From Planctomycetota bacterium (lineage in GTDB: Bacteria > Planctomycetota > Phycisphaerae > Phycisphaerales > SM1A02), in the NCBI GenBank assembly GCA_024226535.1, contig JAAELP010000193.1:2706-66705 (forward strand): a DNA stretch of 64,000 nt, in the 5' to 3' direction. Below, one piece after another: positions 1,336 through 23,035 of the stretch; the stretch's first letter is position 1; the number at the start of each line of letters is the position of its first letter. Position numbers and translations under genes: made by a program. Below the pieces are notes generated by a model, which worked only from the letters and a program-made list of their open reading frames with translations, was not told the DNA's origin and made no database searches.

Positions 1336-1424
1336 GAAGCCTCTCCGTCGACTACGGCTACGTGACCCCGCCGACGAACCGGGTCACGTCGAGCGGCTCA
1401 CCGTGCTCGTCGCCTCCGTGTGGA

Positions 1425-5057: not shown

Positions 5058-7843
5058 GCTCCCCAACTGGCGATGATGATGAGAATGTCCGCGAAGTCCA
5101 CCGACCCGTTGTCGTTGAGATCCTCCGGACACGAGCCGCACGGCCCCCAGGCGCCGATGACGGCGAGGATGTCGCCGAAGCCGACGTCGCCGCTGCCGTC
5201 GAGGTCGGCCGGGCACTCGCACTCGTCGGGAATGCCGTTGACGTTCGCGTCGTGCTCGAGCACGCCGTCGGAACCGACCGCATGCACCAGGAAGTCGCTA
5301 TTGCCCCAGTTCAGGCTGACCCCCGCCCCGAGGTCATTCAGATCGAGCGAGCCGGAGGTGTCGTAGAAGATCCATCCCAGCCCGTCCGTCGGCTCGTCGC
5401 GATCCAGCGCAATGAAGCAAGCGCTGCCGTAGATGTCGTCGAAGTGCACGCCGACGAAGAACGCTGTTCCCACCGGCCCGACATAGGTCGGCGGAATCGG
5501 CACCACGTTGAGATTATCGAGGGGAGAGTCGATCTTCATCGTTCGCGTGTCGACCGTGATGATGACCTGGGCATCGGTGGGATCCCCGTCCCCGTTGGGG
5601 TCGGTCCACAGGACGACTTCGGCCGGCAGATCCGGAAAGGTGTCGCCCCACACGACCTCGATGGCGGAGATCCACTCGCCGCCCGCCTGGACGGTGAATG
5701 GGTTCATCCACGCAAACTCGAGGTCTGTTCCTCCGATGAAACAGAGATTCCCTTCCTGGACGCCGTCGTCGAGCGCGTAGGTCATGGACGTGACCGGCTC
5801 GCCGAGCTGACATTCATCCGGAACACCGTCGCCGTCGCAGTCGTCGCTCGAGCCCAGGAGGAGGTCCAGCGAGTCGACCAGGCCGTTGCCGTTGCAATCC
5901 TCGCATTCGTCCGGCACGCCCGAGCCGTCCGTGTCCACGTCGTAACCGGATGCGATGTCGCACGCGTCGAGGATCCCGTTGTCGTTGCAGTCATTGCCCT
6001 CGAGCTGGCAGTCATCGGGGACGCCGTCACCATCGCAGTCGTTGGCCGTCACCTGGCACTCGTCGGGGACGCCGTCGGCCTGGCAATCCGCGCTCGTCCC
6101 GCCGGCGATGTCGAAACCGTCGACGATGCCGTTGTCGTTGCAGTCCTCGCATTCGTCCGGGACGCCGTTGCCGTCGAGATCCTCGCTGGTCCCGACCTCG
6201 ATGTCGCAGTCATCAGGATTGCCGTTGCCGTTGCAGTCGGTTCCGTCACCACGCATCTGGGCGCGGATTATGAAGACGTTGCCGAACAACAGGTTGTTGA
6301 CCGTGCCGAACTCAACCGCCCCGGCGGAGAGATCGTTCGGGTCGATGGGAGCGTTGGACCCGACGCCCCAACTCCGGTCGGGCACGGGGACCCCCTCGAT
6401 GTCCAGCGCGGCGGGGAAGTCCTGGTCCGTCATCGACACCGTAAAGCCGACGAAGAAGCTCGCGCCGGTATCACCCACCTCGACGTCGGGAACGGCGATC
6501 TGGCTCAGTGAGCTGGTCTGCTGCACGGTCGCCGAATCCGACCACAGAACCTGGGCGTCGGTCGGATCACCGTCTCCGTTCGGGTCGGTCCACACGTACA
6601 CGCCGACCTGCGTCCCCAGGGACATGATGCCGAACTCCACCTCGATCCCCTCCACGGTTCCGGCCCCGTCGACGACGTTGAAGCGGTTGAGCCACGCCAT
6701 GTACGTCTCGTCCGCACGCCAGGCGATCCGCGCAAAGCCGCTGTCGTGGAAGAGACCGATCGCCTCGTCGAGCTGGCACTCGTCGGGGATGCCGTCCGGC
6801 TGACAGTCGTCGGACGTTGCGCCCGCGATGTCACATGCGTCGGCGATCCCGTTGCCGTTGCAGTCGGGGTCGCACTGGTCCGGGATCCCGTTGCCATCGC
6901 AATCGTTCCCCACGAGTTCGCACTCATCGGGCGCACCGTTGCCGTCGCAGTCGGCGCTCGTACCGTCGGCGACGTCGCACCCATCCGGCACGCCGTTGCC
7001 GTTGCAATCTGCCATCTCGTAGCTTGCCAGCAGCTGCCCGTCCGGCATGAAGTCGTCCACGATCCGAAGCTCGTCGATCGCCCCCTTCAGGTGCTGGTTG
7101 ACGCTGCCGGAGACGTTCGTGTGCGCGCCGATGATCAGCGGGCCCACGTTCGCGAAGAACCCCGGCGGGGATACCGGGATCGTCTCGAACATGCCGTCGC
7201 GACCGAAACGCACCTCCCCAGCCACGGCGTCGTAGGCCACGCTGACGGCGTGCCAGTCGAGATCCGAGATCTGGAGGTTCGACGTGACCCCCCACGTCTG
7301 CGTGCCCGTGCCGAAGGTGACGAGCAGCTCGCGCCCGGTGAACCCGGATGTCTTGCCGAAGTTCTCGTCGAGTCCCGACGAGAGGTTGCCCGACTGCACG
7401 AGCACCGAGTAGTCCGAGACGTCGCCGCTGGACGCGATCACCTTCTTCTGGAGCAGGTACTGGCGCTGCCCGGCGCCGCTCGTGTCCGAGAGCTGGTCGA
7501 GCCGGACCCACGCCTCGATGGTGAAGCTCTCGCCGGCGAACGTGAGCAGCCCCCCGGGATCCGCGACCTCGATGAGCCCGTCCGTGAAGTCGACGGCGAA
7601 CGCGTTGGGCTCGCTGGTCTTCGGGACGGGATCGACGGGGACGTCGGTGATCGGGGCGATGCTCACCGCCAGTCCGTCGAGGCCGTTGGGGCCGGAGTCG
7701 ACGATGACGCCGCCGAGGTCCTCGAATCGCCAGTAGGCGAGCGGCTCGATGACCGCGAGGTCGATGGCGTCGTCGATGCCGTTGCCGTTGCAGTCCGCGG
7801 GAACAGCCATCGCGAGAGCGAGCAGCGTGTACGGGAGGATCAT
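5051..7843 (-). CDS. giant secreted paralog: LamG/ConA-like + Cys-bracketed Ca-type repeats + two copies of the unassigned domain + double dockerin-like tail (no PA14)
   Basis: Track ORF, 930 aa. Short leader MILPYTLLALAMAVPA. LamG segment (~7058-7738) is nearly identical to that of 1425..5057. Tail DLDGSGDVGFGDILAVIGAWGPCGSCPEDLNDNGSVDFADILIIIASWGAC. Confidence 0.85.
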   Translation of the reverse strand: MILPYTLLALAMAVPADCNGNGIDDAIDLAVIEPLAYWRFEDLGGVIVDSGPNGLDGLAVSIAPITDVPVDPVPKTSEPNAFAVDFTDGLIEVADPGGLLTFAGESFTIEAWVRLDQLSDTSGAGQRQYLLQKKVIASSGDVSDYSVLVQSGNLSSGLDENFGKTSGFTGRELLVTFGTGTQTWGVTSNLQISDLDWHAVSVAYDAVAGEVRFGRDGMFETIPVSPPGFFANVGPLIIGAHTNVSGSVNQHLKGAIDELRIVDDFMPDGQLLASYEMADCNGNGVPDGCDVADGTSADCDGNGAPDECELVGNDCDGNGIPDQCDPDCNGNGIADACDIAGATSDDCQPDGIPDECQLDEAIGLFHDSGFARIAWRADETYMAWLNRFNVVDGAGTVEGIEVEFGIMSLGTQVGVYVWTDPNGDGDPTDAQVLWSDSATVQQTSSLSQIAVPDVEVGDTGASFFVGFTVSMTDQDFPAALDIEGVPVPDRSWGVGSNAPIDPNDLSAGAVEFGTVNNLLFGNVFIIRAQMRGDGTDCNGNGNPDDCDIEVGTSEDLDGNGVPDECEDCNDNGIVDGFDIAGGTSADCQADGVPDECQVTANDCDGDGVPDDCQLEGNDCNDNGILDACDIASGYDVDTDGSGVPDECEDCNGNGLVDSLDLLLGSSDDCDGDGVPDECQLGEPVTSMTYALDDGVQEGNLCFIGGTDLEFAWMNPFTVQAGGEWISAIEVVWGDTFPDLPAEVVLWTDPNGDGDPTDAQVIITVDTRTMKIDSPLDNLNVVPIPPTYVGPVGTAFFVGVHFDDIYGSACFIALDRDEPTDGLGWIFYDTSGSLDLNDLGAGVSLNWGNSDFLVHAVGSDGVLEHDANVNGIPDECECPADLDGSGDVGFGDILAVIGAWGPCGSCPEDLNDNGSVDFADILIIIASWGAC

Positions 7844-7928: not shown

Positions 7929-8324
7929 CTACGACGGGCACGGGCCCCACGCGCCGATCACGACCAGGATGTCGGCGAAGTCCACCTGGCCGTTGTTGTT
8001 GAGATCCTCGGGGCATCCGGCACACGGTCCCCACGCGCCGATGATCACGAGGATGTCGGCGAAATCGACGTCACCGTTGCCGTTCAGGTCCGGCGGGCAG
8101 GTGGCCGAGGTGCCGATGCCGGCGTGGACGGGTCTGAACCGGTAGTCGTCGTTGACGGGGAGCTGGGTGTCGGCGGAGCGGGCCGAGTGAAGGTCGCCCG
8201 TCTGGGCGTCCTTGGCGATACCAAAGCCCGCCGGCGCGAGTACGAGTGTGAGCACCGTCAGGAGCGTGGCCACCGCCGCACCCAGACCGACGAACTGCTT
8301 CTCACGGATCGACTTGGGGTCCAT
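7929..8324 (-). CDS. small membrane-anchored/secreted protein consisting essentially of a double dockerin-like module
   Basis: Track ORF, 131 aa. Hydrophobic N-terminal span GLGAAVATLLTVLTLVLAPAG, then DLNGNGDVDFADILVIIGAWGPCAGCPEDLNNNGQVDFADILVVIGAWGPCPS. Confidence 0.7.
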   Translation of the reverse strand: MDPKSIREKQFVGLGAAVATLLTVLTLVLAPAGFGIAKDAQTGDLHSARSADTQLPVNDDYRFRPVHAGIGTSATCPPDLNGNGDVDFADILVIIGAWGPCAGCPEDLNNNGQVDFADILVVIGAWGPCPS

Positions 8325-8487: not shown

Positions 8488-9396
8488 TTGATGACTGCCG
8501 GGACCGAGCACGAGGCCGGAACGCAGGGCCCACCCCCCGCCCGGGTGCCCCCCGCTTCCGCTTCTTGGCGACGACCCCGGCCCCGCTGGAGCAGCCGGCT
8601 CTCGGCCCCCCTCCGCTGCCTGCCGGATTTTCTCGTCATCGGGGCCCAGCGGTCGGGGACGACCTTCCTGTTCCAGGAGCTCTCGCGCCACCCCGCCGTG
8701 TGGATGCCGCCGTGCAAGGAGTGCCACCACTTCACGGCGCGGATGCGGTCCAGCCTGTGGTATCGGGCGTTCTTCCTCACGCGGGCCGCCCGGCGCCGCC
8801 GGGAGCGGGCGTGCGGCCGGCCGGTGCTCGTGGGCGAGGGGACGCCGTACTACCTCGTTCACCCGGCCGTACCGGCGCGGGTGGCCCGGCTGCTTCCGGC
8901 GGCGCGGCTCGTGGTGCTGCTGCGCGACCCCGTCGAGCGCGCGTACTCCCACTACCGGCACGAGATCCGGTACGGCCGCGAGCACCTGAGCTTCGAGGAA
9001 GCGCTCGATGCCGAGCCGCGGCGCATCGCCGGCGAACGCGAGCGTCTCGCGCGATCGCGCTTCGCGGCGAGCCCGGCGTACCAGCAGCACTCCTACGTGG
9101 AGCGCGGGCGGTACGCCGAGCAGCTCGAACGGTGGTTCGCCCACTTCGACCGATCGCAGGTGCTCGTCGTCTTCTCCGAGCATCTCTACGCCGATCCCGC
9201 ATCGACGACGGCGCGCGTCGAGGAGTTCCTCGGCCTGCCGCCGGGACCGGAGCAGGCGGCGACCATCCCGAACCCGGGGCTCGAGCTGGGCCCGATGGCG
9301 GACGAGACGCGCCGCCGGTTGCGCGCCGAGTTCGCCGAGTCCGACCGCGCGCTGGAACGGCTGCTCGGCGTGGGGGTGCCGTGGCCGCGGAGCTGA
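8488..9396 (+). CDS. sulfotransferase (Sulfotransfer_1-like; resembles heparan-sulfate N-/3-O-sulfotransferase type)
   Basis: PAPS 5'-phosphosulfate loop FLVIGAQRSGTTFLFQELSRHP and 3'-phosphate motif LLRDPVERAYSHYRH. Confidence 0.85.
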   Translation: MMTAGTEHEAGTQGPPPARVPPASASWRRPRPRWSSRLSAPLRCLPDFLVIGAQRSGTTFLFQELSRHPAVWMPPCKECHHFTARMRSSLWYRAFFLTRAARRRRERACGRPVLVGEGTPYYLVHPAVPARVARLLPAARLVVLLRDPVERAYSHYRHEIRYGREHLSFEEALDAEPRRIAGERERLARSRFAASPAYQQHSYVERGRYAEQLERWFAHFDRSQVLVVFSEHLYADPASTTARVEEFLGLPPGPEQAATIPNPGLELGPMADETRRRLRAEFAESDRALERLLGVGVPWPRS

Positions 9397-9412
9397 TCGT
9401 CCGGGTCGTTGC

Positions 9413-9907
9413 TCAGGGGCACGGCCCCCATGCCGCGATGACCACGAGGATGTCCGCGAAGTCGACGGCGCCGTTGCCGTTGAGATCCTCGGGGCATCCT
9501 CCGCACGGTCCCCACGCCCCGATGTGCTGCCGCTGGCCGGCGCCGCTCGTGTCGCTCACGTGATCGAGCCTGACCCACGCCTCGATCGTGAAGCTCGCGT
9601 CGCCGAAGCTCAGAAGACCCGTCGGATCGACGACGTTGAAGCGGCCGCCCGACGCGGTGCTCTGCCAGTTCAGGTCGAGCGACTGCGTGTTCAGCGCGCC
9701 GGTGCCGGGCACGGGATCGACCGGGATCTCCGCGATCCGGAACGGCAGCGCGTTGAGCGTGCCGTCGAGACCGTTGGGCCCGCTGTCGACGACCGTCGTC
9801 CCGCCCGCGCCCTCGAAGCGCCAGTACGCCGTCTCGACGGCGTTCGCCGCGGTGGTGAGACCGCCGAGAACGATCGCGCCCGTCCCGATGACTGTCCAGA
9901 TACGCAT
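9413..9907 (-). CDS. mini family member: signal peptide + N-terminal half of the LamG domain fused directly to one dockerin-like repeat
   Basis: Track ORF, 164 aa. AYWRFEGAGG..FTIEAWVRLDHVSDTSGAGQRQ is followed immediately by HIGAWGPCGGCPEDLNGNGAVDFADILVVIAAWGPCP. Confidence 0.7.
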   Translation of the reverse strand: MRIWTVIGTGAIVLGGLTTAANAVETAYWRFEGAGGTTVVDSGPNGLDGTLNALPFRIAEIPVDPVPGTGALNTQSLDLNWQSTASGGRFNVVDPTGLLSFGDASFTIEAWVRLDHVSDTSGAGQRQHIGAWGPCGGCPEDLNGNGAVDFADILVVIAAWGPCP

Positions 9908-9935
9908 GCTGTTTCCCTCCTACCGCCAAGGCAGT

Positions 9936-10145
9936 TCAGCAGTCTCCCCACAACGACAGCAGCACGCCGATGTCGCTGATCCCGACGACGCCGTCGCCGT
10001 CGAGCTCCACCTGGATCACGTCGCCCCCAACGGCGACGTCGACGGCTCCCTGGACGGACGGAAAGTGATCCGGCACGATGATGGTCCCGGCCGTCGCGAC
10101 GTCGCAGACCGCGAGCAAGGCGAGTGATGAGATCATCCGTCTCAC
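9936..10145 (-). CDS. small secreted protein with a single degenerate dockerin-like C-terminus
   Basis: Track ORF, 69 aa. Leader MRRMISSLALLAVCDVATA; ends DGDGVVGISDIGVLLSLWGDC. Its GTG start overlaps the upstream GT2 stop by 4 nt (10142-10145), suggesting coupled translation. Confidence 0.5.
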   Translation of the reverse strand: MRRMISSLALLAVCDVATAGTIIVPDHFPSVQGAVDVAVGGDVIQVELDGDGVVGISDIGVLLSLWGDC

Positions 10146-11149
10146 GATTCACCTCCTGACACCTGGTGGGGCTCCTCCGCGCGCTTCCGAAGCAGGTACG
10201 CGAGCACGCCGTGCGTCATGCCGACGCCGCGCCAGACGGCGCGCACGGCGCTCATGCCGGCGAAGAGCACATGGCTCAGGCGCCCCGTGCGGCGCACGAT
10301 GGCGGTCGTCATGGGGATCTGCGTGACGAGCAGCAGGCCGAGGAGCACCACCGGCGTCCACCGCGCATACGGCACCACCGCCAGCGGCAGCGACGCGAGC
10401 AGGGCCATCGCGAGCATCGGCTGCACGTGATCGAGGGCGTTGCTGTACGAGTTGTGCCCCGCCCGACCCGGGTGCTCCAGGTGCAGCCAGACGCGCCAGT
10501 AGCCCTGTTGCCGCTGGGTCCTCAGGTACGAGCCGAGCCGCTGCTCGTGATAATGATCGACCCGGGAGCGCGCCTCGAAACGAAGACGGCCGCCGGCATC
10601 GCGGGCCCGGAACGACAACTCGGCGTCCTGGGCCTTCAGGTAGCGCTCGTCGAAGCCGTCGAGGTCCGCGAGCACCGAGCGCCGGTACAGCACGTTGAAC
10701 GTCGCGAGGAAGTCAACCTCCTCGCCCATGGCCAGGTGCCGCTGGACGATCTCCTCGTGGATGAGGCACGGGAGCAGGCTGTCCGCGTTCGCGTTGCCGT
10801 ACGTCCCGCTCACGGCGGCCACGTCCGGCGCCTCCAGGTGCCCGACGAGGTGCTCCAGGGCGTCGGGCGCCGCGACGCAGTCGGAGTCGACGAACCAGAC
10901 GAGGTCCCCGCGCGCCGCCCGCCAGCCGAGGTTCCGGGCGGAGCCCGCGCCGGACCCGGTTCCCGCGAGCACCGTCACCGGATGACGGCCCGCGATCGCC
11001 GCCGTGTCGTCGGTGGAGCCGTCGTCGACGAAGATGATCTCCTCCAGGGGCGATCCCGGCCGCGCGCCGATCGCGACGATCGCCGCGAGGCACGCCTCGA
11101 TCGTCGCGGCGCAGTTCCGTCCCGGGATGACGGCGCTCACCGTGCTCAT
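10142..11149 (-). CDS. family 2 glycosyltransferase with C-terminal membrane helices
   Basis: VIPGRNCAATIEACLAAI..IIFVDDGSTDDT..SARNLGW..WFVDSDC, followed by hydrophobic C-terminal spans. ATGA overlap with the upstream gene at 11146-11149. Confidence 0.85.
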   Translation of the reverse strand: MSTVSAVIPGRNCAATIEACLAAIVAIGARPGSPLEEIIFVDDGSTDDTAAIAGRHPVTVLAGTGSGAGSARNLGWRAARGDLVWFVDSDCVAAPDALEHLVGHLEAPDVAAVSGTYGNANADSLLPCLIHEEIVQRHLAMGEEVDFLATFNVLYRRSVLADLDGFDERYLKAQDAELSFRARDAGGRLRFEARSRVDHYHEQRLGSYLRTQRQQGYWRVWLHLEHPGRAGHNSYSNALDHVQPMLAMALLASLPLAVVPYARWTPVVLLGLLLVTQIPMTTAIVRRTGRLSHVLFAGMSAVRAVWRGVGMTHGVLAYLLRKRAEEPHQVSGGES

Positions 11150-13014
11150 TCCCGGACCTCCCTTCGGGCTTCCGACTCCTCGAGCCAGCGGCGTGCGCCG
11201 TCGTGCCCCGGGTCCGCGTCGAGCGCGCCGCGGTACGCGGCGGCGGCGGCGTCCATCCGGCCGAGCCGGAAGTGCGTGTTGCCGACGTTGTAGAGCGCCG
11301 ACGCGAGCAGGGCCTCGTCACGCGCGGCGCGGGCGAGCCGCGCGCCCTCCTCGAACGCCGGGATCGCCTCGTCGAAACGCTCCGCCTCCGTGAGGGCGTT
11401 GCCCAGCGCCAGGTAGGCCCCGGCGCTCGGCGCACGCTCGATAGCGCGCCGGTACGTCTCCACCGCGTCCTCCGGGCGCCCCGCCCGCCGGAGCGTGTCC
11501 GCCAGTTGGAGCAGCGCATCGGGACGCCGCAACTGCGGGGCGGCGACCTCCAGGTAGCGAAGCGCCTCGCCGAACCGGCCGGCCTCCGCGAGCGCGGATC
11601 CGTAGTTGAGCTCCGCGAGCGCGTCCCCCGGGCGCTCGGCCACGACCGCGCCGAGCACGTCGATCGCCTCGTCGATTCGCCCCGCCTCGTGCAGGGCGAC
11701 GCCGAGATTGACACGAGGCCGGCGGTGATGCGGCACCTGCTCGGCCGTCTTCGTCCAGAGCGCCAGCGGCGTGCGATAGTCGTGGTTGCGCACGATCGAG
11801 CGGGCCCCGAGGGCCGTCGTGGCCGCGACGAGGACCACCGCCCCGACGACCGCCGCCCGCGAGGGCCCGACCAGCCGCGGGGCCAACCACGTGAAGCCGG
11901 CGACCGCGAGCACCGCGAGCGCCGCCAGCGGCAGGTACATCCGGTGCTCGGCCGCGAGATCACGGATGGGCACGAAGCTCGAGGTCGGCGCGAGCCAGAT
12001 GAAGAACGCGGCTCCCGCGAAGGCGATCGGCCGACGGCGCCACGCGCCGACCACGGTCACCACGGCGGCGGCGGTGAGCAGCGCGCCGGGGATCACGACT
12101 TCGCGCGCCGTCGTCGCCGCCGGCCAGCCGGGGTCGATGCACAGCGAGCGGGGCCACGCCGCCAGCGCGACGTAGTGCACGATCACCCCCGCCTGCGTGA
12201 CGAAGTACTCCAGCGGCGTGACCTGCGCCACCCCGAAGCCCGCCGAGGGCGTTCCCGCGTCACCGGGCGCCCCGAAGATCGCCGCGAGCGTTCCGGTCGG
12301 AACCAGCACGAGCCACGTGCACGCGAGCGCCGCGTGGAGCGCGCCGCGCCGCCGCAGCGCCGCGCGCCACGACGACGAGACGACGATCCCGTCGAAGACC
12401 AGGGCGAGCACCGGCGCCACGACCATCGTCGGCTTGGCCCCCATGCCCAGCGCGCACGCGACGATCGCGACGGCCCACCACCGGGCCCCGCGCTCCGCGC
12501 GACCGGCGCGCAGCACCGCGTACAGCACGACGAACATGGCCAGCGCGGCCAGCACCTCCGACCGCTGGATCACGTAGGTCACCGACTCCGTCTGGAGCGG
12601 GTGCACGACCCACAGCAGCGCGGCGGCGAAGCCGATCGTGGTCGCGCCGCGCCGGCGGGCGACCACCCGGCGGACGAGGCCGAACAGCACGCAGGCGGCC
12701 GCGACGTGCAGGAGCACGTTCACCGCGTGGTAGCCGCGCGGGTCCAATCCCCCGAGTGCGTGGTTCGCCACGAGCGTCGCGGTCGTCACCGGGCGCCGAT
12801 CGCCGCGGAACAACTTTCGCAGGTCGCCCGACAGCTCGCCGGAGCGCTCGACGATCTGCGGCACGTCGTCGAAGACGAATGCCGCCGGAATCGCGTTGGC
12901 GTACACCGCCAGGCCGGCGACGACGATCACGACGTGCAGGATGAGGATCGATCGCCAGTCCCCGCGCCGGGGATCGCGGCCATCCCCCGGCATTGCCGGA
13001 GGCGCCTCGGTCAT
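11146..13014 (-). CDS. TMTC-like GT-C fold glycosyltransferase: multi-pass membrane domain + C-terminal TPR repeats
   Basis: YANAIPAAFVFDDVPQIV..RPVTTATLVANHALGGLDPRGYHAVNVLLH matches the FVFDD / RP..L / GYH..N..LH signature of TMTC (DUF1736) proteins. At least 9 hydrophobic spans. TPR-like C-terminus (NLGVALHEAGRIDEAIDVL.., YLALGNALTEAERFDEAIPAF.., LYNVGNTHFRLGRMDAAAAAYRGAL). Start moved to ATG 13014, which forms an ATGA overlap with the stop of 13011..14273. Track ORF extends to 13128. Confidence 0.8.
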   Translation of the reverse strand: MTEAPPAMPGDGRDPRRGDWRSILILHVVIVVAGLAVYANAIPAAFVFDDVPQIVERSGELSGDLRKLFRGDRRPVTTATLVANHALGGLDPRGYHAVNVLLHVAAACVLFGLVRRVVARRRGATTIGFAAALLWVVHPLQTESVTYVIQRSEVLAALAMFVVLYAVLRAGRAERGARWWAVAIVACALGMGAKPTMVVAPVLALVFDGIVVSSSWRAALRRRGALHAALACTWLVLVPTGTLAAIFGAPGDAGTPSAGFGVAQVTPLEYFVTQAGVIVHYVALAAWPRSLCIDPGWPAATTAREVVIPGALLTAAAVVTVVGAWRRRPIAFAGAAFFIWLAPTSSFVPIRDLAAEHRMYLPLAALAVLAVAGFTWLAPRLVGPSRAAVVGAVVLVAATTALGARSIVRNHDYRTPLALWTKTAEQVPHHRRPRVNLGVALHEAGRIDEAIDVLGAVVAERPGDALAELNYGSALAEAGRFGEALRYLEVAAPQLRRPDALLQLADTLRRAGRPEDAVETYRRAIERAPSAGAYLALGNALTEAERFDEAIPAFEEGARLARAARDEALLASALYNVGNTHFRLGRMDAAAAAYRGALDADPGHDGARRWLEESEARREVRE

Positions 13015-14273
13015 GACGGGGCCTCGGGGAGCGGGTACTCGTACGTGATCGTCGACGGCACGTACGGGAAGTCCATCCGCAGCCGGTACACGTCCATCCG
13101 ATCGGCGTCCCAGCCCAGCGACCCGCACACGTGGCGGACCATCTTCTCGTAGCGCGGCACGTCGCGCGTGCGCAGCACGCTCGGGCCCGACCCGAGGTAC
13201 TCGACCTGCTCGTGGATCGGCAGCCGATCGCGGTCCGACCGCAGCGTCGTGTACAGCGGGCGCCCGGCGAGCTCACCGTAGAGACGCGCCTGGGGCGCGA
13301 CGCGACCGTAGAGGTCCGCGGGCACCAGGTGGTCGAAGACCACGGTTCGACACGGCGTTCGTAGCTCGAGGTTCTGCGCGAGGATCCGGTTCGATTCGGC
13401 GCGATACCTCGGCATGACGGAACGCACGACCTCGCCGGTGAAGCACGTCACGGCGCCCTCGTTCCCCAGCGGCCCCGAGCCGACCTCGTCCTCCACGGTG
13501 CCGTCCTCAAGGATGCGCCTCTGCACTTCGGTCCGCGAGGTCGAGGAGAAATCGTGGAGGAGCGGGGCGCAGCCCGCCTTCGTGTCGTCGATCGCCTCGC
13601 GCTCGACGGGAATGGGCCGGCCGAGGTCGTCGGTCGGCCGCCAGCGCTCGATGACCCAGGAGCGGTCCGGGCGCAGGCGTCGCAAGCCCACGGACCCGAA
13701 GATCACGGCGGCGTCGAGCATGACGCCGTCCTGATTGGGGTTCACGATCACGGCGCGCATCATCGCGCGGGCCTGCACGCCCCAGATGAAGCTCGTCGCC
13801 TGGAAGCCGTCACGGCGATACAGGAGTTCGACGTCCCGGCCGTTCTCGGCCGCGAGCCCGGCGAGGATCATCTCGAACGTCTCCCGGTCACCGGCGTGCC
13901 GGGCGACGATCTCGTCGAGATTCGCCAGGGCCGTTCGGACCGCGGCCAGCCGCTCGGTCGAGACCCCGTGCCGCTTCGCGGCGGACAGGATCTTCTCGAC
14001 GGCGCCGGCACCCGGGATGCGCTGGAAGATCACGACCGGGTCGGTGCTCTCCATGATCTTGGCGAGCTTCCACGCGAGCGTCTTGTGGAGGCCGAGCGAC
14101 TTGGCGATCTCGTACGGCCGCTCGGTGGGCTCGGGCACGGTGCCGACCGCGTCCACGAACGCGTCCTGCACCCGCAGGAGGGCGTTGTGCGCCAAGGCCC
14201 CGACGCCCGCGTCGGCCGGGGTCGCGGGTCGGGATGGAATCGTCGAAGCCACGTCCCTCAACCCTATCCACAA
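13011..14273 (-). CDS. hypothetical protein, family not recognised (possible N-terminal HTH-like segment)
   Basis: Track ORF, 420 aa, with balanced, protein-like composition and no low complexity. ERPYEIAKSLGLHKTLAWKLAKIM looks helix-turn-helix-like. TTG start at 14273; alternative GTG at 14252. Confidence 0.65.
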   Translation of the reverse strand: MWIGLRDVASTIPSRPATPADAGVGALAHNALLRVQDAFVDAVGTVPEPTERPYEIAKSLGLHKTLAWKLAKIMESTDPVVIFQRIPGAGAVEKILSAAKRHGVSTERLAAVRTALANLDEIVARHAGDRETFEMILAGLAAENGRDVELLYRRDGFQATSFIWGVQARAMMRAVIVNPNQDGVMLDAAVIFGSVGLRRLRPDRSWVIERWRPTDDLGRPIPVEREAIDDTKAGCAPLLHDFSSTSRTEVQRRILEDGTVEDEVGSGPLGNEGAVTCFTGEVVRSVMPRYRAESNRILAQNLELRTPCRTVVFDHLVPADLYGRVAPQARLYGELAGRPLYTTLRSDRDRLPIHEQVEYLGSGPSVLRTRDVPRYEKMVRHVCGSLGWDADRMDVYRLRMDFPYVPSTITYEYPLPEAPS

Positions 14274-14354
14274 TCAGCCGCACCGAGAAGTAGGTAATCT
14301 GGGTTTTTGGAACCGCCCCCAAAAACGGTCTTGCCCAGTTCGACACCGGCCCGC

Positions 14355-15596
14355 TCACAGCCCGGGGAGGGCACCGGAACCCCCCGCCAGGCCCTCGTAG
14401 CGGGCCACCAGGACGTCGGCCAGCCTCTCCGTGTCGAACCGCTCGAGCGCCGCCGCCCGGCCCGCCGATCCGAGCCGGCCGGCGAGGTCGGCATCCTCGA
14501 GCCGGGCGATCCGCTCGGCCATCGCCTCGACGTCGTGCTCGTCGACCAGCCAGCCGGTGACGCCCTCGTCGACCTGGTGGGGAATGCCCGCGTGCCGGGT
14601 GGCCACGACCGGAAGCCCCGACGCCATCGCCTCCAGGATCACGGTGGGCGTGCCCTCCTCGTCGCCGTCCGACGCGCGGACGCTCGGGGCGATCAGCGCG
14701 TGCGCGCCGGCCATGAGCGCCGGCACGTCCTCGTGCCCGACGGCGCCGGCGAAGTGCACGGCATCGGCGATCCCCAGTTCGTCGGCGAGAGCGCGGAGTT
14801 CGCGGTCGAGCGGACCGTCGCCCGCGATGTGATAGGCGACGGGCAGCCCGCGGGCGCGGGCGAGGGCCACCGCGCGCAGCCCGTCGGCGAAGCCCTTCTT
14901 CTCGACGAGACGCCCCACCGACAGCAGTCTCAACGGTGGGCGCGGCGGCGCGTGCCCGGTGGGCGTGAAGCGCCGGCAGTCGACGGCGAGCGGGTGGACG
15001 TCGAGCTGCTCCGGCTTCGCCCCGAGCGCCTCGAGGCGGTCGCGCATCACCGGGTCGAGCGCCAGCACGAGCGCCGCGCGGTCGAACAGCCTGCGGTAGA
15101 CGTCGCCGCCGCGCTCCTGCGGGTACCGCGTCACGTCGTGCCCGTAGAACGTGGCCACGAGCGGTCCGCGCAGCACGCCCAACTCGTGCAGCATCGCCCC
15201 CGTGACCCCCGCCGGTCCGAAGTGACAGTGCACCGCGTCGAAGCGAGGTCGATCGAGCAGCGGCACCGCGGCGTGGAGAGCGGCGAAGGACAGCGCGTAC
15301 CGGCCGAACCGCAGCGGGTTCAGGGCCCGGCCGACGATCCGCGGGTGACACCAGGCGTGCCGAGCGGCGAGGGCCAGGCCGCTCAGGGTGCGGGGGAGCC
15401 GCGCCGTGGCGAGCGGCGGCTGCGGGCGCCAGTGCGACGCGAGACGCTCGCGGGCGGCGTCATCGACGGCCCCGGCCGGCGTCGGCGGGGCGAAGATGGC
15501 CAGCTCGTGCCCGCGCTCGAGCAGCCCCTCAAGCTGGCCGAGGACGTACGGCTGGTGGCGGCGGGGGAAGTCAGGGACGAGAATCGCGATCTTCAT
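14355..15596 (-). CDS. GT-B fold glycosyltransferase (GT4 family, WcaL-like)
   Basis: MKIAILVPDFPRRHQPYVLGQLEGLLERGHE at the N-terminus. C-terminal EEGTPTVILEAMASGLPVVATRHAGIPHQVDEGVTGWLVDE (E-x7-E region). Start moved to ATG 15596; track ORF begins at 15641. Confidence 0.85.
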   Translation of the reverse strand: MKIAILVPDFPRRHQPYVLGQLEGLLERGHELAIFAPPTPAGAVDDAARERLASHWRPQPPLATARLPRTLSGLALAARHAWCHPRIVGRALNPLRFGRYALSFAALHAAVPLLDRPRFDAVHCHFGPAGVTGAMLHELGVLRGPLVATFYGHDVTRYPQERGGDVYRRLFDRAALVLALDPVMRDRLEALGAKPEQLDVHPLAVDCRRFTPTGHAPPRPPLRLLSVGRLVEKKGFADGLRAVALARARGLPVAYHIAGDGPLDRELRALADELGIADAVHFAGAVGHEDVPALMAGAHALIAPSVRASDGDEEGTPTVILEAMASGLPVVATRHAGIPHQVDEGVTGWLVDEHDVEAMAERIARLEDADLAGRLGSAGRAAALERFDTERLADVLVARYEGLAGGSGALPGL

Positions 15597-15655
15597 CGGC
15601 CACGCCGCCCCGTCGATGACACCCGGAAGACACCACGCCACGCAGTGCCGGCCCC

Positions 15656-16468
15656 ATGACCCCCCCCATGACCCCCCCGATCATCATCACCGGAATGCAC
15701 CGCTCGGGCACATCGCTGCTGGCGAGCATGTTCTACCACGCGGGGCTCCATCTCGGTGACCGGCTGCTGCGCCCGGCTCGCGCCAATCCGCGAGGCTACT
15801 TCGAGGACGTGGAGTTCATCGCGTTCCACGACGACGTGCTGCGGCGTCTGGGAACGACGTTCTACCTGGAGCCCGAGCCGAACGGCCCGGTGCCGGCGCC
15901 CTGCCGCGAGCGCGCCGAGGAGATGATCGCCGCGCGGGACGACCGCCCGGCGTGGGGATGGAAGGACCCGCGCACCACGCTGTTCCTGGACTTCTGGCGC
16001 GAGCTGGTCCCGGACGCTCGTTTCGTCTTCGCGTACCGGAGCCCCGCGGAGGTCATCGATTCGCTTCGGCGCCGCGGAGACGCCGAGCTCCAGCGCCGAT
16101 ACCCGGGCGCGCCGTTCCTCGAGCGTTTCGGCGTCCCGCGGTACCGCACGCGTCGCGCGCTGGAGCTCTGGTGCTCGTACAACGAGCGCATCGTCTCGTT
16201 CGTCGAGCGGGATCGCGCGCGATGCCGCCTCGTGCGCTTCGACGCCCTCGCCGAGGTCGTCGGCCCCCTCGTCGACGAGCTCTGCGACGACGGAGTGCCC
16301 CTGCGCCGCGATGCCGACGTCGCGTCCGTCGTCGATCCGAAGCTGGGCGCCGTCGCGCCGCCGCCGGCACTGGCGCGGACCTGCGCCCGCGACCGCCGCG
16401 CGGCGGATCTCATGCGGCGGCTCGACGCCCTCATGGCGTCGACCGCGCCGGGGGGAGGCTCGGCATGA
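15656..16468 (+). CDS. sulfotransferase (Sulfotransfer_3-like)
   Basis: PAPS loop IIITGMHRSGTSLLASMF. Later FVFAYRSPAEVIDSL is a 3'-PB-like motif. Duplicated ATG-A-polyC start (see findings). Confidence 0.8.
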   Translation: MTPPMTPPIIITGMHRSGTSLLASMFYHAGLHLGDRLLRPARANPRGYFEDVEFIAFHDDVLRRLGTTFYLEPEPNGPVPAPCRERAEEMIAARDDRPAWGWKDPRTTLFLDFWRELVPDARFVFAYRSPAEVIDSLRRRGDAELQRRYPGAPFLERFGVPRYRTRRALELWCSYNERIVSFVERDRARCRLVRFDALAEVVGPLVDELCDDGVPLRRDADVASVVDPKLGAVAPPPALARTCARDRRAADLMRRLDALMASTAPGGGSA

Positions 16469-16473: not shown

Positions 16474-18024
16474 TCATGGATCGCCGGCATCGGACTCGCC
16501 GCGCGTCGGCGCGGCCCCGGCCCGCCGGGGAACGAGGTGCCGCGCCGTGACGACCATGGCGGCGATCCTCCGGCGCCCGCCCGGCACGACGAGCCAGCCC
16601 AGCGCGTACCCCGCGGCGAACGTCGCCAGCAGCACCACGAGCGCGAACGCGTGCGGGCCGTCGGGACCGAGCCGAACGGCCACGGGCACGCTCACCGCCG
16701 CCGCCACGGACGACGCCACCGCGATGCGCCACGTCGCGGTGACGATGTCGCTCACCTGCACGAACGTGCCGCGCAGGCAGTAGAGGATCGCGGGAATGCG
16801 GAGCGTGCACGCGGTGATGCTCAGCGCCGCCGCCACGCCCACCGCGCCCCAGCGCAGACCGATGAGGTACGCGGCCACCACGCAGAACGCCCGGAACAGG
16901 TGCCAGCGGAACTGCCGGTCCGACCGGCCCAGCGGCACGTACACCCAGCTCGTGGCCACGTTGACGGACGCGAGCAGGGCCGCCGGGGCGAGCGCCTTGA
17001 AGATCGGGATCGCCGCGTCCCACTGGTCGCCGAGCAGCGTGGGCACGAGATGATCGGCCGCGATGAGACCGGCGAGCACGGCGGGGAACGACACCGCCGC
17101 GATCGCCTCGAGCCCGCGCCGGTAGAACAGGCGGTAGCGGTCCGGGTCGTCCTGCAATCGGCTCAGCGTGGGGATGGCGACGTGGGTCAGCGGGAAGTTG
17201 AGCTGCGCGATCGGCATGAGCAGGATCCGGTGCGCGTGGGCGTAGTACCCGGTCGCGGTCGCGCCCAGCACGCGTCCGATCAGGATCCGGTCGAGGTTCC
17301 GCGCGATCGTGCCGATCAGGTTGGTGCCGGTGAGGTAGGCGCCGAAGCGCACCATGGGCGCGAGCCCCTCCGACCGGCGCGGACGTCCCGGCCGCCAGTC
17401 GCAGGCGAGCCAGTACCCCGCCGCCCGCAACAGGGCCATGGCCAGCGTGAGCACGACGAGTGCCCAGTAGCCGGCGCCGAGCGAGGCGGCGACGATGGCG
17501 GCGGCGATGCCCCCGGCCGTCGCCGCCACGGTGATCGCGGACAGCGCCGTGAAGCGCATCCGGCGGCGCAGCAAGGCATGATGCTGCGTGGACAGTCCGG
17601 TGACCACGAAGGCCGCCGACAAGACGGCGGTGACCGCCGCGAGTTGTGGCTCACCGTAGAACCAGGCGACCGGGTAGGCGATCGCCACGCCGACGGCGGC
17701 CGCGGCGACGCCGACGGTGGCGTTGATCCAGAACAGCGCATTGACCTGGTCGTCGGTGACGTCCGTCTGCTGAACGGTCGCCTGCGGCAGGCCCAGCTCG
17801 GCGAAGTTCGCGATGAAGGCGACGAACCCCGCGGTCATGGCGATGAGCCCGAAGTCGTCGGGTGTCAGCAGGCGGCCGAGCACCGCCGCGGACACCACCC
17901 CCAGCAGCACGGTGACTCCCTGCGCCACCAGCACCGCGGCGCCGCTGCGCACGGAACGCCCCGGGAGATCCAGGTGCAGGTCGTCCGTGCGCAGCGCGCT
18001 CGGCGTCTCCCGCTCGCGCGTCAT
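16474..18024 (-). CDS. polysaccharide flippase, Wzx/PST family (MOP superfamily)
   Basis: About 12-14 hydrophobic spans. N-terminal GAAVLVAQGVTVLLGVVSAAVLGRLLTPDDFGLIAM is typical of Wzx-type transporters. Start at ATG 18024 (MTRERE); alternative at 18054. Confidence 0.8.
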   Translation of the reverse strand: MTRERETPSALRTDDLHLDLPGRSVRSGAAVLVAQGVTVLLGVVSAAVLGRLLTPDDFGLIAMTAGFVAFIANFAELGLPQATVQQTDVTDDQVNALFWINATVGVAAAAVGVAIAYPVAWFYGEPQLAAVTAVLSAAFVVTGLSTQHHALLRRRMRFTALSAITVAATAGGIAAAIVAASLGAGYWALVVLTLAMALLRAAGYWLACDWRPGRPRRSEGLAPMVRFGAYLTGTNLIGTIARNLDRILIGRVLGATATGYYAHAHRILLMPIAQLNFPLTHVAIPTLSRLQDDPDRYRLFYRRGLEAIAAVSFPAVLAGLIAADHLVPTLLGDQWDAAIPIFKALAPAALLASVNVATSWVYVPLGRSDRQFRWHLFRAFCVVAAYLIGLRWGAVGVAAALSITACTLRIPAILYCLRGTFVQVSDIVTATWRIAVASSVAAAVSVPVAVRLGPDGPHAFALVVLLATFAAGYALGWLVVPGGRRRIAAMVVTARHLVPRRAGAAPTRGESDAGDP

Positions 18025-18131
18025 CGCGAGCGTCTCCGGCGGGCCGGGGCACATGGGCGGGTTTCCAGGCGGGGGGAGGTCACGCGGCGGTCATGGTACC
18101 GGGCGCGACCATTTACCATGAGCGAGCGGAC

Positions 18132-19046
18132 ATGACCGATGCCCCGAGACAAGTCGAGTCCGACGGAGATCGCGTGGAGCGTCTCGCCTCGAAGCCGATC
18201 CTGATCGTCGGCGCCCCGCGGAGCGGCACGACCTGGGTCCAGCGCCTGCTCCTCGGCGACCCGCGCTGCTGCGGGAGCCAGGAGTCCCACTTCTTCGTCA
18301 CCTTCGGGCGCGTCCTGGGGGACTTCGACGACAAGGCCGGGCGCGCGCGCCCGCACGGCCTCGCCTGCTACTGGAAGCGGGCCGATCTCGTGGCGGAGCT
18401 GCGGCGGCTCTGGGGCCGCTCGGTGGGGACGCTGATCGAGCGGAGCCCCGCCGCCGAGATCCTCGTGGAGAAGACGCCCGACCACGCGTGCTGGCTGGAC
18501 GTCATCGACGAGATCCTCCCGTCCGCGCGGATCGTGCACGTGGTGCGCGACAGCCGCGCCGTGTGCGCCTCGCTCCTGCACGCGAGCCGGCAGCCTTGGG
18601 GCGGGCCGTGGGCGCCGTCCACGGCGGGCGCCGCCGCGGCGAAGTGGCGCGAGCACGTGGAGGCCGCCGAGCGCTCGGGGGCGCGGCTGGGGAGCGAGCG
18701 CTTCATGCGCCTGCACCAGGAGGACCTGCACGAGGATCCCCCGCGCGAGATGGGCCGGCTCTGGCGTTTCGCCGGCCTCGAGGTCGAGCCCGCCCGGCTC
18801 TCGGCCATCGCCGACGCCGCCGCGAAGCCCGGCGGCCCCGCGTTCGAGATGACCGGTGAGCTCGAGGGGGCCGCCGGGCCCGAGCCGGACGGCTTCGCGC
18901 GCGGCGGCGCGCCGAACCGCTGGCGGCGCGAGCTCGGCCCGTGGCAGCGCTGGGTCATCTGGCGCGAGACCGCCGCCGCCATGCGCCGCCTCGGCTACGA
19001 CCGGAGCGGCCGCGCGCGCGGCGGCGTGACGGAGACGACGGAGTGA
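18132..19046 (+). CDS. sulfotransferase (Sulfotransfer_3 / tyrosylprotein-sulfotransferase-like class)
   Basis: ILIVGAPRSGTTWVQRLLL (5'-PSB) and IVHVVRDSRAVCASLL (3'-PB). Start at ATG 18132 inside track ORF 18093..19046. Confidence 0.8.
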   Translation: MTDAPRQVESDGDRVERLASKPILIVGAPRSGTTWVQRLLLGDPRCCGSQESHFFVTFGRVLGDFDDKAGRARPHGLACYWKRADLVAELRRLWGRSVGTLIERSPAAEILVEKTPDHACWLDVIDEILPSARIVHVVRDSRAVCASLLHASRQPWGGPWAPSTAGAAAAKWREHVEAAERSGARLGSERFMRLHQEDLHEDPPREMGRLWRFAGLEVEPARLSAIADAAAKPGGPAFEMTGELEGAAGPEPDGFARGGAPNRWRRELGPWQRWVIWRETAAAMRRLGYDRSGRARGGVTETTE

Positions 19047-19936
19047 GCGCCGTGCCACGAGTCTCCGTCATCATGATCGTCCTCGACGGCGAGCGCTTCC
19101 TGCCCGAGGCGCTCGACAGCGTCGTCGCCCAGACGATGCCGGACTGGGAGCTGGTCATCGTCGACGACGGATCGACGGACCGGACCCCCGAGATCGCCGG
19201 GGCGCTCGCGGCCCGGGAGCCCGAGCGCGTGCGCGTGGTGACGCACCCCGACCGCACCAACCGCGGCATGAGCGCGTCGCGCAACCTCGGCGTGCGCGAG
19301 AGCCGCGGTGCCTACGTCACGTTCCTCGATCACGACGACGTCATGATGCCGGAGAAGCTGCGCGAGCAGGCGGCGCTGCTCGACGACCACCCCAACGCCG
19401 CCGCCGTCTTTGGCCCCAACCTGCTCTGGCGATCGTGGGATCCCGGCGCCGGCGACGAGCCGGACGAGATCCAGACGCTGGACCTGCCCACCGACCGCGT
19501 CGCACCGCCTCCGGGCCCGCTGCCGTCGTACCTGGCGAGCAGCGCGGCCACGCCGCTCGGCTTCATGATCCGGCGCACCGCGTTCGACGACGTCGGCGGA
19601 TACGAGGAGACGTTCCGCGGCATGTACGAGGACCAGGTCTTCCAGGCCAAGCTCTACCTCGACCATCCCGTGTACGTCTCGAGCCGGGTGTGGATCCGGT
19701 ACCGGCGGCACCCGGACTCGTGCGTCATCCGGACGTTCCGGGAAGGCGGTCAGCTCCTCGCCCGCCGTCGCTTCCTGCACTGGCTGCGCGACCATGTCGC
19801 GAGCCGGCCCGTCGCCGATGCCGAACTGCGACGGCTGATCCGGGAGGAGCTGCGACGGACGGGCCGCGCCCGCGCGACCTGGCTCGTGCGGCAGGCGCGC
19901 AACCGGATCGCGAGGTTCCTCGGTCGCGGTTCGTGA
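19043..19936 (+). CDS. family 2 glycosyltransferase
   Basis: VSVIMIVLDGERFLPEALDSVVAQT..LVIVDDGSTDRT..SASRNLG..TFLDHDD. GTG start at 19043 overlaps the upstream stop (GTGA). Confidence 0.85.
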   Translation: MSAVPRVSVIMIVLDGERFLPEALDSVVAQTMPDWELVIVDDGSTDRTPEIAGALAAREPERVRVVTHPDRTNRGMSASRNLGVRESRGAYVTFLDHDDVMMPEKLREQAALLDDHPNAAAVFGPNLLWRSWDPGAGDEPDEIQTLDLPTDRVAPPPGPLPSYLASSAATPLGFMIRRTAFDDVGGYEETFRGMYEDQVFQAKLYLDHPVYVSSRVWIRYRRHPDSCVIRTFREGGQLLARRRFLHWLRDHVASRPVADAELRRLIREELRRTGRARATWLVRQARNRIARFLGRGS

Positions 19937-22879: not shown

Positions 22880-23035
22880 GAAGCTACCGTATCCTCTTCC
22901 CCATGGCTTCGCCCCCGGCATTGATCGATCCGGACCGGCCCTCGGCCCTCGGCCGCCGGCCGCCGGCCACCCCTGGCTCACCGCTTCCGAGCGCTCGCGG
23001 GCCGCGCGATCGACCGGCCGCGCGGCCGACGGCGC

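Follow-up and report, generated by a model that had tools for sequence, protein, structure and literature searches.

The window analyzed here is a stretch of 64,000 nucleotides (GC content of about 70%) from JAAELP010000193.1, a 68-kb contig of a metagenome-assembled genome (MAG) listed as "Planctomycetes bacterium." Between positions 9413 and 14273 it carries five minus-strand open reading frames (ORFs) encoding, in this order, a conserved hypothetical protein, a GT-C-type membrane glycosyltransferase with C-terminal tetratricopeptide repeats (TPRs), a family 2 glycosyltransferase (GT2), and two short products of 69 and 164 amino acids (Table 1). NCBI annotates the same genes as GY715_10060 to GY715_10080. 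The initial annotation read these ORFs as a translationally coupled operon in which the glycosylation enzymes modify secreted, dockerin-tailed proteins encoded beside them. Comparison with related loci upheld the operon and changed the interpretation of both the short ORFs and the tail proteins.

Related metagenome loci L001, L018, L002/L003, L004, L013, and L014 were used for comparison. L001 and L018 are syntenic with the window and form its closest clade, and the others represent a wider clade, with orthologues in L002/L003, L013, and L014 being 51 to 57% identical. Seven related loci had sufficient flanking sequence to be informative about the tail-protein genes, and an eighth, L018, was too short to show them.

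Organization and conservation of the operon

All five ORFs were confirmed at the boundaries first assigned to them, with the GT-C gene read from its ATG. Also confirmed were the 4-nt overlaps joining the first four genes (ATGA at 13011 to 13014, ATGA at 11146 to 11149, and GTGA at 10142 to 10145) and the 28-nt spacer before the fifth, which contains a GGAGGG Shine-Dalgarno sequence ahead of the ATG at 9907. Because the same overlaps recur in related loci, they are more than chance. The chain of 4-nt overlaps running from the hypothetical protein through GT-C to GT2 is also present in the gene tables of L001, L018, L002/L003, and L013, the overlap of GT-C with GT2 is also present in L004 and L014, and GT2 orthologues come straight after GT-C in every related locus. 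GT2 overlaps the next gene by 4 nt in L018 and is separated from it by 3 nt in L001. A terminator scan detected no terminator-like site between the genes, the sole minus-strand match (12019 to 12007) lying inside the GT-C gene, and a sigma-70 promoter scan gave no match, as expected for this phylum. The five genes are one tightly coupled unit, as first proposed, and it is conserved in relatives.

Table 1. Positions of the operon, the tail-protein genes, and the surrounding glycan cluster in the 64-kb window
Position	Strand	Feature	Basis
13011..14273	-	Conserved hypothetical protein, 413 to 420 aa	About 70 homologues
11146..13014	-	GT-C-type membrane glycosyltransferase with C-terminal TPR, 622 aa	TPR matches, FDD motif
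10142..11149	-	GT2 glycosyltransferase, 335 aa, 2 to 3 C-terminal hydrophobic helices	PF00535 6.8e-28
9936..10145	-	69-aa probable in-frame deletion remnant of a ~1047-aa beta-helix (NosD)/LamG/dockerin gene	L001 collinearity
9413..9907	-	164-aa probable in-frame deletion remnant of a LamG/Ca-repeat/beta-helix/dockerin gene of at least 953 aa	L001 15867-18725
14301..14328	-	Conserved 28-nt AT-rich hairpin, GT4-to-hypothetical-protein intergenic region	Sequence CCGTTTTTGGGGGCGGTTCCAAAAACCC
7929..8324	-	Small signal-anchored protein with complete double dockerin, 131 aa	PF00404 27.1 bits
5051..7843	-	Secreted LamG/Ca-repeat protein, 930 aa, double dockerin tail	Laminin_G_3 1.6e-9
1425..5222	-	PA14 + LamG/Ca-repeat protein, ~1200 aa, double dockerin tail	PA14 6.1e-26; Laminin_G_3 1.3e-10
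1..1383	-	Polytopic membrane protein, cut by window edge	Homologous to 811- to 844-aa membrane/TPR protein
8488..9396	+	Sulfotransferase, convergent with the remnant genes	PF13469 1.3e-16; PF00685 2.4e-16
14355..15641	-	Family 4 glycosyltransferase (GT4), directly upstream of operon	Glycos_transf_1 3.1e-36; Glyco_transf_4 3.8e-15
15656..16468	+	Sulfotransferase	Pfam
16474..18054	-	Wzx flippase	PF13440 6.5e-86
18093..19046	+	Sulfotransferase	Pfam
18941..19936	+	GT2	Pfam
19944..20882	-	NAD epimerase	Annotation taken from collinear L001 gene
20975..22168	+	GFO/IDH/MocA oxidoreductase	Pfam
22172..23302	-	Sulfotransferase	Pfam
23126..23692	+	Sulfotransferase	Pfam
23689..24933	-	GT2	Pfam
24618..25961	-	GT2	Pfam
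25570..26604	+	GT2	Pfam

The conserved core of the unit consists of the hypothetical protein, GT-C/TPR, and GT2, followed by a second membrane/TPR protein. In the window, the last of these corresponds to the polytopic protein at the window edge, which is 55 to 61% identical (tblastn) to the products of L002 7805 to 10240 and L004 10673 to 12442. This product has a weak match to DUF6541 (1.3e-4 over about 400 positions), and the DUF6541-like protein matched O-antigen_lig at 0.2 only. TPRs were found in the L002 orthologue, and the 811- to 844-amino-acid orthologues, with TPRs at their C termini, overlap GT2 by 4 nt in L002, L013, and L014. The L004 orthologue is likewise coupled to GT2 and is cut by the contig end. 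The window protein may be a second GT-C-like enzyme.

Three gene orders were represented among these loci. In L002/L003, L013, and L014, one strand carries the hypothetical protein, GT-C/TPR, GT2, the membrane/TPR protein, a sulfotransferase, a GT2, and so on, and the strand divergent from this module carries a PpgS-like GT2, a DUF2304 protein, a dockerin protein of about 129 amino acids, and a PA14-LamG protein, with a further LamG gene after the PA14-LamG gene only in L014. L004 has a third order, from which the hypothetical protein is absent. In the clade formed by the window, L001, and L018, a block of tail-protein genes separates GT2 from the membrane/TPR gene, its direct coupling partner elsewhere. 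Direct coupling of GT2 to a tail protein is confined to this closest clade, and coupling of GT2 to the second membrane/TPR protein is probably the wider, ancestral arrangement.

The operon is preceded by the short hairpin listed in Table 1, which is identical at L001 8686 to 8713 and matches at 27 of 28 positions (96%) at L018 680 to 707, while the flanking intergenic sequence diverges. Its centroid fold has a 10-bp stem. Related motifs (TTTTCAAGAACG / TTCCAAAAAC) precede the module in L002, L004, L013, and L014. Judged from its position and sequence, the hairpin may serve, at the operon's 5' end, as a promoter, an operator, or a boundary element.

The GT-C gene product had been described as a TMTC-like protein, and this description held in part. 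TPR families matched residues ~410 to 620 of the 622-amino-acid protein at 1e-16 to 1e-21 (Pfam), and about 11 membrane helices could be read from the secondary structure of an AlphaFold2 model (mean predicted local distance difference test [pLDDT] score, 88.4) together with Arg-rich loops. Just after the first long helix of this model (residues 16 to 41) stands an FDD motif, of which D49 was invariant and D50 nearly invariant in alignments of 46 and 15 homologues. The positive-inside distribution of arginines suggests an extracytoplasmic position for this motif. A loop around D352, E356, and R358 was conserved across the 46 GT-C homologues, with H357 nearly invariant. PMT_2 (PF13231) was matched by 3 of 15 homologous N-terminal domains (38 to 76% identical; best match, 4.9e-11) and is listed as a precomputed annotation for the window protein itself. 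However, DUF1736 (PF08409) matched neither the window GT-C nor any of the 15 homologous N-terminal domains at an E value at or below 1. Because the FDD motif, weak PMT_2 homology, and TPRs are present but DUF1736 is missing, the protein is a probable GT-C enzyme that is TMTC-like in architecture and not a member of the TMTC family. More than 5,900 GT-C/TPR homologues were retrieved, and the locus is a tractable entry point to this very large, uncharacterized bacterial family of TPR-bearing GT-C enzymes. Two more distant GT-C/TPR paralogues that were examined lie in housekeeping gene contexts with no tail-protein neighbors.

The assignment of the following gene to GT2 was borne out (Table 1). 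Its best NCBIfam models were MftF-like (1.8e-41) and EpsD (2.9e-26), both below cutoff. Relatives in the wider clade encode an additional GT2 that matched the polyprenyl-P-GalNAc synthase model for PpgS (NF058614) at 1.3e-66, below the 370-bit cutoff. Together with a small DUF2304 membrane protein, it is found at L002 2540 to 3696, L004 6620 to 7692, L013 8838 to 9898, and L014 7876 to 9023, and this pair adjoins the module, divergent to it, in L002 to L004, L013, and L014.

The hypothetical protein, initially called an orphan, belongs to a family of about 70 homologues of about 410 amino acids each, all from Planctomycetota/Phycisphaerae. NCBI places its start 7 codons later, giving 413 amino acids. 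It had no Pfam, NCBIfam, or PDB sequence match, and neither a signal peptide nor a transmembrane segment was evident on reading the sequence. An AlphaFold2 model (pLDDT, 90.5) has a helical N-terminal domain and a beta-rich C-terminal domain, for which Foldseek returned nothing from PDB above a TM-score of 0.27. The resemblances to the beta-sandwich of ribophorin I/Ost1 from oligosaccharyltransferase complexes and to the LTA4H N-domain, at or below that score, were rejected as homology. The family is of interest as one that is coupled to GT-C in the close clade and has a confident predicted fold with no structural relative. Homologues at 23 to 42% identity occur in unrelated gene contexts. A profile scan with a 14-sequence alignment led to eight distant loci in this identity range, used as controls only, and none of them had the GT-C/GT2 module or tail genes. 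One Phycisphaerae contig, L009, encodes three paralogues of this family (30 to 34% identical to the window protein) within 10 kb (9356 to 19935), with no GT-C or GT2 neighbors detected.

Upstream of the operon lies a wider glycan cluster with a Wzx flippase, four further GT2s, a GT4, an epimerase, and a GFO-type oxidoreductase (Table 1). The sulfotransferases said to flank the unit are indeed there, five genes falling within 8.5 to 23.7 kb. The rest of the window consists of housekeeping genes.

Dockerin-tailed proteins and the two short ORFs

All tail genes of the 64-kb window lie within 8.7 kb, beside the cluster. The description of their products as dockerin tailed proved correct for the three intact paralogues, which have two tail repeats each, as Type I dockerins do. 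The last 71 amino acids of the 1425-5222 product matched Dockerin_1 (PF00404) at 28.5 bits (1.7e-6), and the 131-amino-acid protein also exceeded the gathering cutoff of 22.9 bits. Assignment of the tails to the NCBIfam "GC-type dockerin" (NF041540) was rejected, since they scored 13 to 16 bits against a cutoff of 29. In the 1425-5222 gene, which probably starts inside the ORF as listed, the PA14 domain (amino acids 126 to 266) matched that of the Clostridium thermocellum anti-sigma factor RsgI3 (PDB 6qe7) at 5.9e-60. No cohesin was detected among the large window ORFs scanned. There were also no Ser/Thr-rich linkers in the tail proteins, where Ser plus Thr make up 9 to 15% overall and the richest 30-amino-acid windows, reaching 0.33 to 0.37, lie inside folded beta-domains.

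Association of secreted tail proteins with the enzymes extended to orthologous loci. Dockerin-tailed PA14/LamG proteins adjoin the cluster in 7 of 7 informative loci across three gene orders, although, as described above, the direct junction with GT2 is a feature of the closest clade only. Tail-bearing ORFs were present in all 7 informative module loci and in 0 of 11 control loci, so the co-occurrence that the initial annotation had suggested examining does exist, but the controls come from more distant organisms and the comparison is confounded by phylogeny. The most constant tail-bearing member is the ~130-amino-acid protein. It has a complete double dockerin as well as a signal anchor and the motif LPVNDD(Y/F)RF, and wherever a related locus has sufficient flank, its gene is found within the glycan cluster. 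Its orthologues of 126 to 129 amino acids are located at L002 2102 to 2491, L004 4113 to 4502, L013 8283 to 8663, and L014 7419 to 7808, with another in L003, and a 78%-identical orthologue was found in the protein collection. Orthologues of the 1425-5222 gene are present in L002, L003, L013, and L014, and L014 has a 957-amino-acid orthologue-like gene of 5051-7843.

The tail family is genome-wide and not locus specific, and other contigs of the MAG encode at least 10 further members. Many small secreted proteins are encoded on these contigs (P0196, P0199, P0205, P0212, P0214, and P0224) in which a short region separates the signal peptide from a full double dockerin, and GY715_00355 is a minimal 85-amino-acid protein of signal peptide and dockerin only. 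Among the tail-protein genes of L004, a minus-strand gene (1692 to 3971) encodes a 759-amino-acid protein with FGE-sulfatase, PA14, and BNR_2 domains, which hints at sulfated-glycan turnover functions in the neighborhood.

The two short ORFs at the end of the operon had been described as dockerin-tailed mini proteins, a view that did not survive comparison with L001. Window positions 23028 to 10009 are collinear with L001 1 to 12823 at 81 to 86% identity, and 10014 to 9521 are collinear with L001 15758 to 16256 at 83% identity (BLASTN). Two large gaps in this collinearity coincide exactly with the two small ORFs. At the first, the window lacks about 2934 bp (978 codons) that in L001 encode the body of a 1047-amino-acid protein in which a NosD-type beta-helix and LamG are combined with a double dockerin. 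The 69-amino-acid ORF (GY715_10065) consists of the first ~45 and last 23 residues of that protein, fused in frame at a junction with 3 to 6 bp of microhomology. Besides the signal peptide and a stub of the beta-helix cap, it retains the last dockerin repeat, in which the first loop Asp has been replaced at the deletion junction to give ELDGDG. At the second gap, amino acids 1 to 129 of the 164-amino-acid ORF match the N terminus of the protein encoded by L001 15867-18725 and are followed directly by the last dockerin repeat. Against the window paralogue 5051-7843, its residues 27 to 129 are 55% identical to amino acids 36 to 130 and its residues 129 to 163 are 80% identical to the last 35 amino acids. 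What remains is one dockerin repeat preceded by the signal peptide and the N-terminal half of LamG. The possibility that it is a genuine LamG mini protein was rejected, since it stops midway along the region that matches Laminin_G_3 in its paralogues and orthologue.

Each short ORF thus keeps one of two dockerin repeats, neither has a Pfam match, and both are singletons in a collection of 15 billion proteins. The chance of two deletions both being in frame is 1/9. Compared with L001, the ratio of nonsynonymous to synonymous substitution rates (dN/dS) was 0.31 to 0.50 for the remnants and 0.20 to 0.35 for the enzymes, values that do not separate recent loss from constraint. On this sequence comparison, both ORFs are probably nonfunctional remnants. 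Because the genes are intact in L001 and, over at least 256 amino acids, so is the beta-helix gene of L018 (4-nt overlap with GT2), the deletions are specific to this genome or its assembly. Small tail proteins are not remnants in general, since the 131-amino-acid protein and several MAG proteins are conserved with complete double dockerins.

A different lesion was found in L001, where the GT-C orthologue (10001 to 11683, P0004) has no equivalent of window residues ~284 to 367 and its DLAAEHRMYLP motif is out of frame. By sequence, this enzyme is probably inactive, though the dockerin-tailed genes downstream of it are intact. The GT-C of L018 is intact. These cases caution that short "mini-protein" ORFs beside enzymes can be in-frame deletion remnants and that enzyme substrates are not identifiable from operon tightness alone.

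Function of the operon and role of the tail proteins

Pairing of a GT2 with a GT-C is a signature of extracytoplasmic glycosylation from a lipid-linked monosaccharide, and this reading of the donor is reinforced by the PpgS-like GT2 and DUF2304 pair in relatives. We assign a probability of about 0.5 to the joint reading that the genes form the distal operon of a surface or exopolysaccharide locus of the Wzx type in an uncultured Phycisphaerae-related planctomycete, that its GT-C acts on a glycan, and that the tail proteins are glycan-binding or glycan-processing exoproteins of this sulfated glycan locus, a role favored over that of glycosylation substrates. The module would then combine a cytoplasmic hypothetical protein, a GT-C of ~11 helices whose TPR domain is periplasmic, and a GT2 anchored in the membrane. 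A GT2 would load a sugar onto a polyprenyl-phosphate carrier at the cytoplasmic face, candidates being the adjacent 335-amino-acid GT2 and, in relatives, the PpgS-like GT2 with its DUF2304 partner, and GT-C would transfer the lipid-linked sugar in the periplasm. The acceptor would most likely be the locus's own glycan or another envelope component, favored because of the Wzx and sulfotransferase setting and because sulfated exopolysaccharide (EPS) clusters are known in bacteria of the Planctomycetes-Verrucomicrobia-Chlamydiae (PVC) superphylum (PMC7356697). The dockerin-tailed PA14, LamG, and beta-helix proteins could be Ca-dependent, surface-docked, lectin-like or glycan-processing exoproteins that bind, organize, or modify this glycan, and the two tail genes directly coupled to GT2 would each have undergone a clean in-frame internal deletion in this genome. 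Since the tail proteins lack Ser/Thr-rich linkers and carry carbohydrate-binding or -processing modules (PA14, LamG, and beta-helix), co-location can be explained without their being substrates. If the link is functional, an uncultured marine Phycisphaerae clade couples a sulfated-glycan pathway to dockerin-anchored lectin-like proteins, a way to build an organized Ca-dependent glycan-protein surface matrix that is unstudied in bacteria.

Several observations weigh against this interpretation. The N-terminal domain of the window GT-C (amino acids 1 to 405) had no Pfam match in a live scan even at an E value at or below 5, and its profile had 0 matches to PDB sequences. The full sequence matched only TPRs in PDB, and the Foldseek PDB matches of the full model were all driven by the TPR region, leaving the GT-C fold unconfirmed structurally. 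No Wzy, priming transferase (PGT), polysaccharide copolymerase (PCP), or outer membrane polysaccharide export (OPX) protein was recognized in the window, from which the PpgS/DUF2304 pair is also absent, and no dedicated flippase for a lipid-linked monosaccharide (GtrA, MATE, or similar) was found among the Pfam-scanned window ORFs. By analogy with TMTC proteins, a periplasmic TPR domain would be more typical of protein than of glycan recognition, and together with the persistent secreted-protein neighborhood and the precedent of the Pgf operon (PMC12041528) this favors a protein acceptor. Tail genes that are co-directional with and downstream of glycosylation genes in three orders are also what an enzyme-substrate relationship predicts. 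Finally, the dN/dS of the remnants is not near 1, so that they are either recent or still constrained.

The analysis started from the proposal that coupling marks the tail proteins as substrates. In its modest form, GT-C/TPR would O-glycosylate them from a lipid-linked sugar supplied by GT2, making an enzyme-plus-substrate unit like the Pgf locus. The proposal was weakened, and we regard it as doubtful. Translational coupling of GT2 to a tail gene occurs in three lineages (window, L001, and L018), but it is derived and limited to one clade, and in the window both directly coupled tail genes are gutted beside intact enzymes. L001 shows the reverse, with the GT-C loop deleted or frameshifted and the tail proteins intact. 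In the wider clade, tail genes are downstream of and co-directional with PpgS/DUF2304 (L002, L003, L013, and L014) or inside the cluster (L004), and the 7-of-7 against 0-of-11 contrast agrees with this, subject to its phylogenetic confounding. However, the more distant GT-C/TPR paralogues have no tail neighbors, and the tail family has many members elsewhere in the genome. The TPR-bearing, TMTC-like architecture recalls enzymes assigned protein O-mannosyltransferase activity (PMC7801869), but the TMTC signature DUF1736 is missing. The Pgf precedent (PMC12041528), matched here by two GT-C-like/TPR proteins, GT2s, and an epimerase, is countered by candidates without Ser/Thr-rich acceptor regions. 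All of these objections apply equally to the extension of this idea to a proteoglycan-like system, in which GT-C primes the tail proteins and the flanking glycosyltransferases and sulfotransferases extend and sulfate the glycan to form a sulfated glycoprotein surface layer. Five sulfotransferases, many glycosyltransferases, two GT-C-like/TPR proteins, and secreted Ca-binding proteins do share one locus, and this association is conserved across related loci. This support is circumstantial, and the Wzx flippase points to a lipid-linked repeat-unit polysaccharide pathway that needs no protein core. Because the sulfotransferases have no signal peptide on reading their sequences and the tail proteins are secreted, sulfation most simply takes place on lipid-linked or nucleotide-level intermediates. 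We consider such a system highly improbable, and equally so the variant in which both GT-C/TPR enzymes O-glycosylate the tail proteins, including the ~130-amino-acid dockerin protein, and the 413-amino-acid protein is a new cytoplasmic pathway component.

The opposite possibility is that there is no functional link, the tail genes being neighbors by descent in one family-level clade that have been shuffled, with the junction in the window created by block insertion into the operon. All loci with both module and tail share at least 50% protein identity and thus represent one clade, the tail block of the window and L001 separates two genes that are coupled directly elsewhere, the tail family is dispersed in the genome, and the locus has withstood the loss of two tail genes in the window and, in L001, of the GT-C loop. 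Nevertheless, the association survives three gene orders, in two of which the tail genes share a strand with the adjacent glycosylation genes, all tail genes of the window are gathered beside the cluster, the ~130-amino-acid protein is kept wherever flank is sufficient, and the lectin-type domains of the tail proteins make a glycan link plausible. Absence of a link is unlikely. A separate concern is that the deletions are artifacts of assembly or binning, or minority population variants, and that the organism keeps full-length genes, which would be compatible with a MAG contig as the source, a tail region repeated among paralogues, and the singleton status of both small proteins. However, the 5' breakpoints lie in unique sequence, the few base pairs shared at the first junction fall far short of the k-mer lengths used by assemblers, neither join disrupts the reading frame, both tails fit the family consensus, and flanking collinearity is perfect. 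We judge such an artifact improbable.

Comparison with known systems

Three-component systems that modify glycans through a GT-C enzyme are widespread, GT136 pentofuranosylation being one example (PMC11127046), and in mycobacteria PpgS/Rv3632 feed the GT-C Rv3779, which modifies a polysaccharide (PMC3485146). Like these systems and Gtr O-antigen glucosylation, the window has a probable GT-C beside a membrane-anchored GT2 in a polysaccharide locus, and its relatives also carry a PpgS-like GT2 and DUF2304 protein beside GT-C. The window differs in that its GT-C carries TPRs instead of a carbohydrate-binding C-terminal domain, its module adds a cytoplasmic hypothetical protein and a second membrane/TPR protein, and it has no recognized flippase of this kind and no PpgS pair. 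The eukaryotic TMTC1 to TMTC4 (GT105 type) are O-mannosyltransferases of cadherins in the GT-C/PMT clan, with the DUF1736 loop between TM7 and TM8 as their signature (PMC7801869). Enzymes of this type transfer mannose from polyprenyl-phosphate-mannose to Ser/Thr residues in folded domains. The window GT-C resembles them in its predicted ~11 transmembrane helices, acidic first-loop motif (FDD), long loop before TM8, and C-terminal TPRs that are predicted to be noncytoplasmic. In contrast to them, it is a bacterial protein inside a polysaccharide operon, with no DUF1736 in it or its 15 homologues and no sequence match to a solved GT-C.

The claim that a system of this sort had not been described was too strong in view of the Pgf operon (PMC12041528) and of sulfated glycosaminoglycan (GAG)-like EPS clusters in PVC bacteria (PMC7356697). 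In Streptococcus mutans, the Pgf operon encodes PgfS (GT2), PgfE (epimerase), and PgfM1/PgfM2 (GT-C), whose substrates, the adhesins Cnm, CbpA, and CnaB, are products of the same cluster (PMC12041528). The window likewise brings together a GT2, two GT-C-like membrane proteins, an epimerase, and secreted surface-protein genes in one locus. It differs in its planctomycete, Gram-negative-type periplasmic setting, in TPR domains on its enzymes, in tail proteins without Ser/Thr-rich disordered regions, and in the addition of Wzx and five sulfotransferases. Dockerins of the window recall the hypothetical "planctosome," a term for noncellulosomal cohesin/dockerin systems in Planctomycetes (PMC6461901), sharing with it Type I dockerin-like double Ca-binding repeats at the C termini of secreted, noncellulolytic Planctomycetota proteins. 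However, the cargo here is PA14, LamG, and beta-helix domains and not peptidases, the genes are linked to a locus for glycan biosynthesis, and the window ORFs scanned included no cohesin.

The module of hypothetical protein, GT-C/TPR, GT2, and second membrane/TPR protein was not found described in the literature consulted, nor was its conserved tie to dockerin-tailed lectin-like proteins in a Phycisphaerae clade. Within the PVC superphylum, Pontiella has a putative sulfated GAG-like EPS cluster with a GT-C-like protein and a GT2 for an undecaprenyl phosphate (Und-P)-linked sugar (PMC7356697). That cluster and the window locus share GT2/GT4 enzymes, PF13469-type sulfotransferases, a GT-C-like membrane protein, and an Und-P-sugar GT2 in a PVC bacterium, whereas five sulfotransferases, TPR-bearing GT-Cs, and a dockerin-tailed lectin-like set are features of the window locus and none is reported for Pontiella. 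The building blocks are all of known kinds: three-component GT-C glycosylation, PVC sulfated EPS, Planctomycetes dockerins, and an enzyme-plus-substrate operon of the Pgf type.

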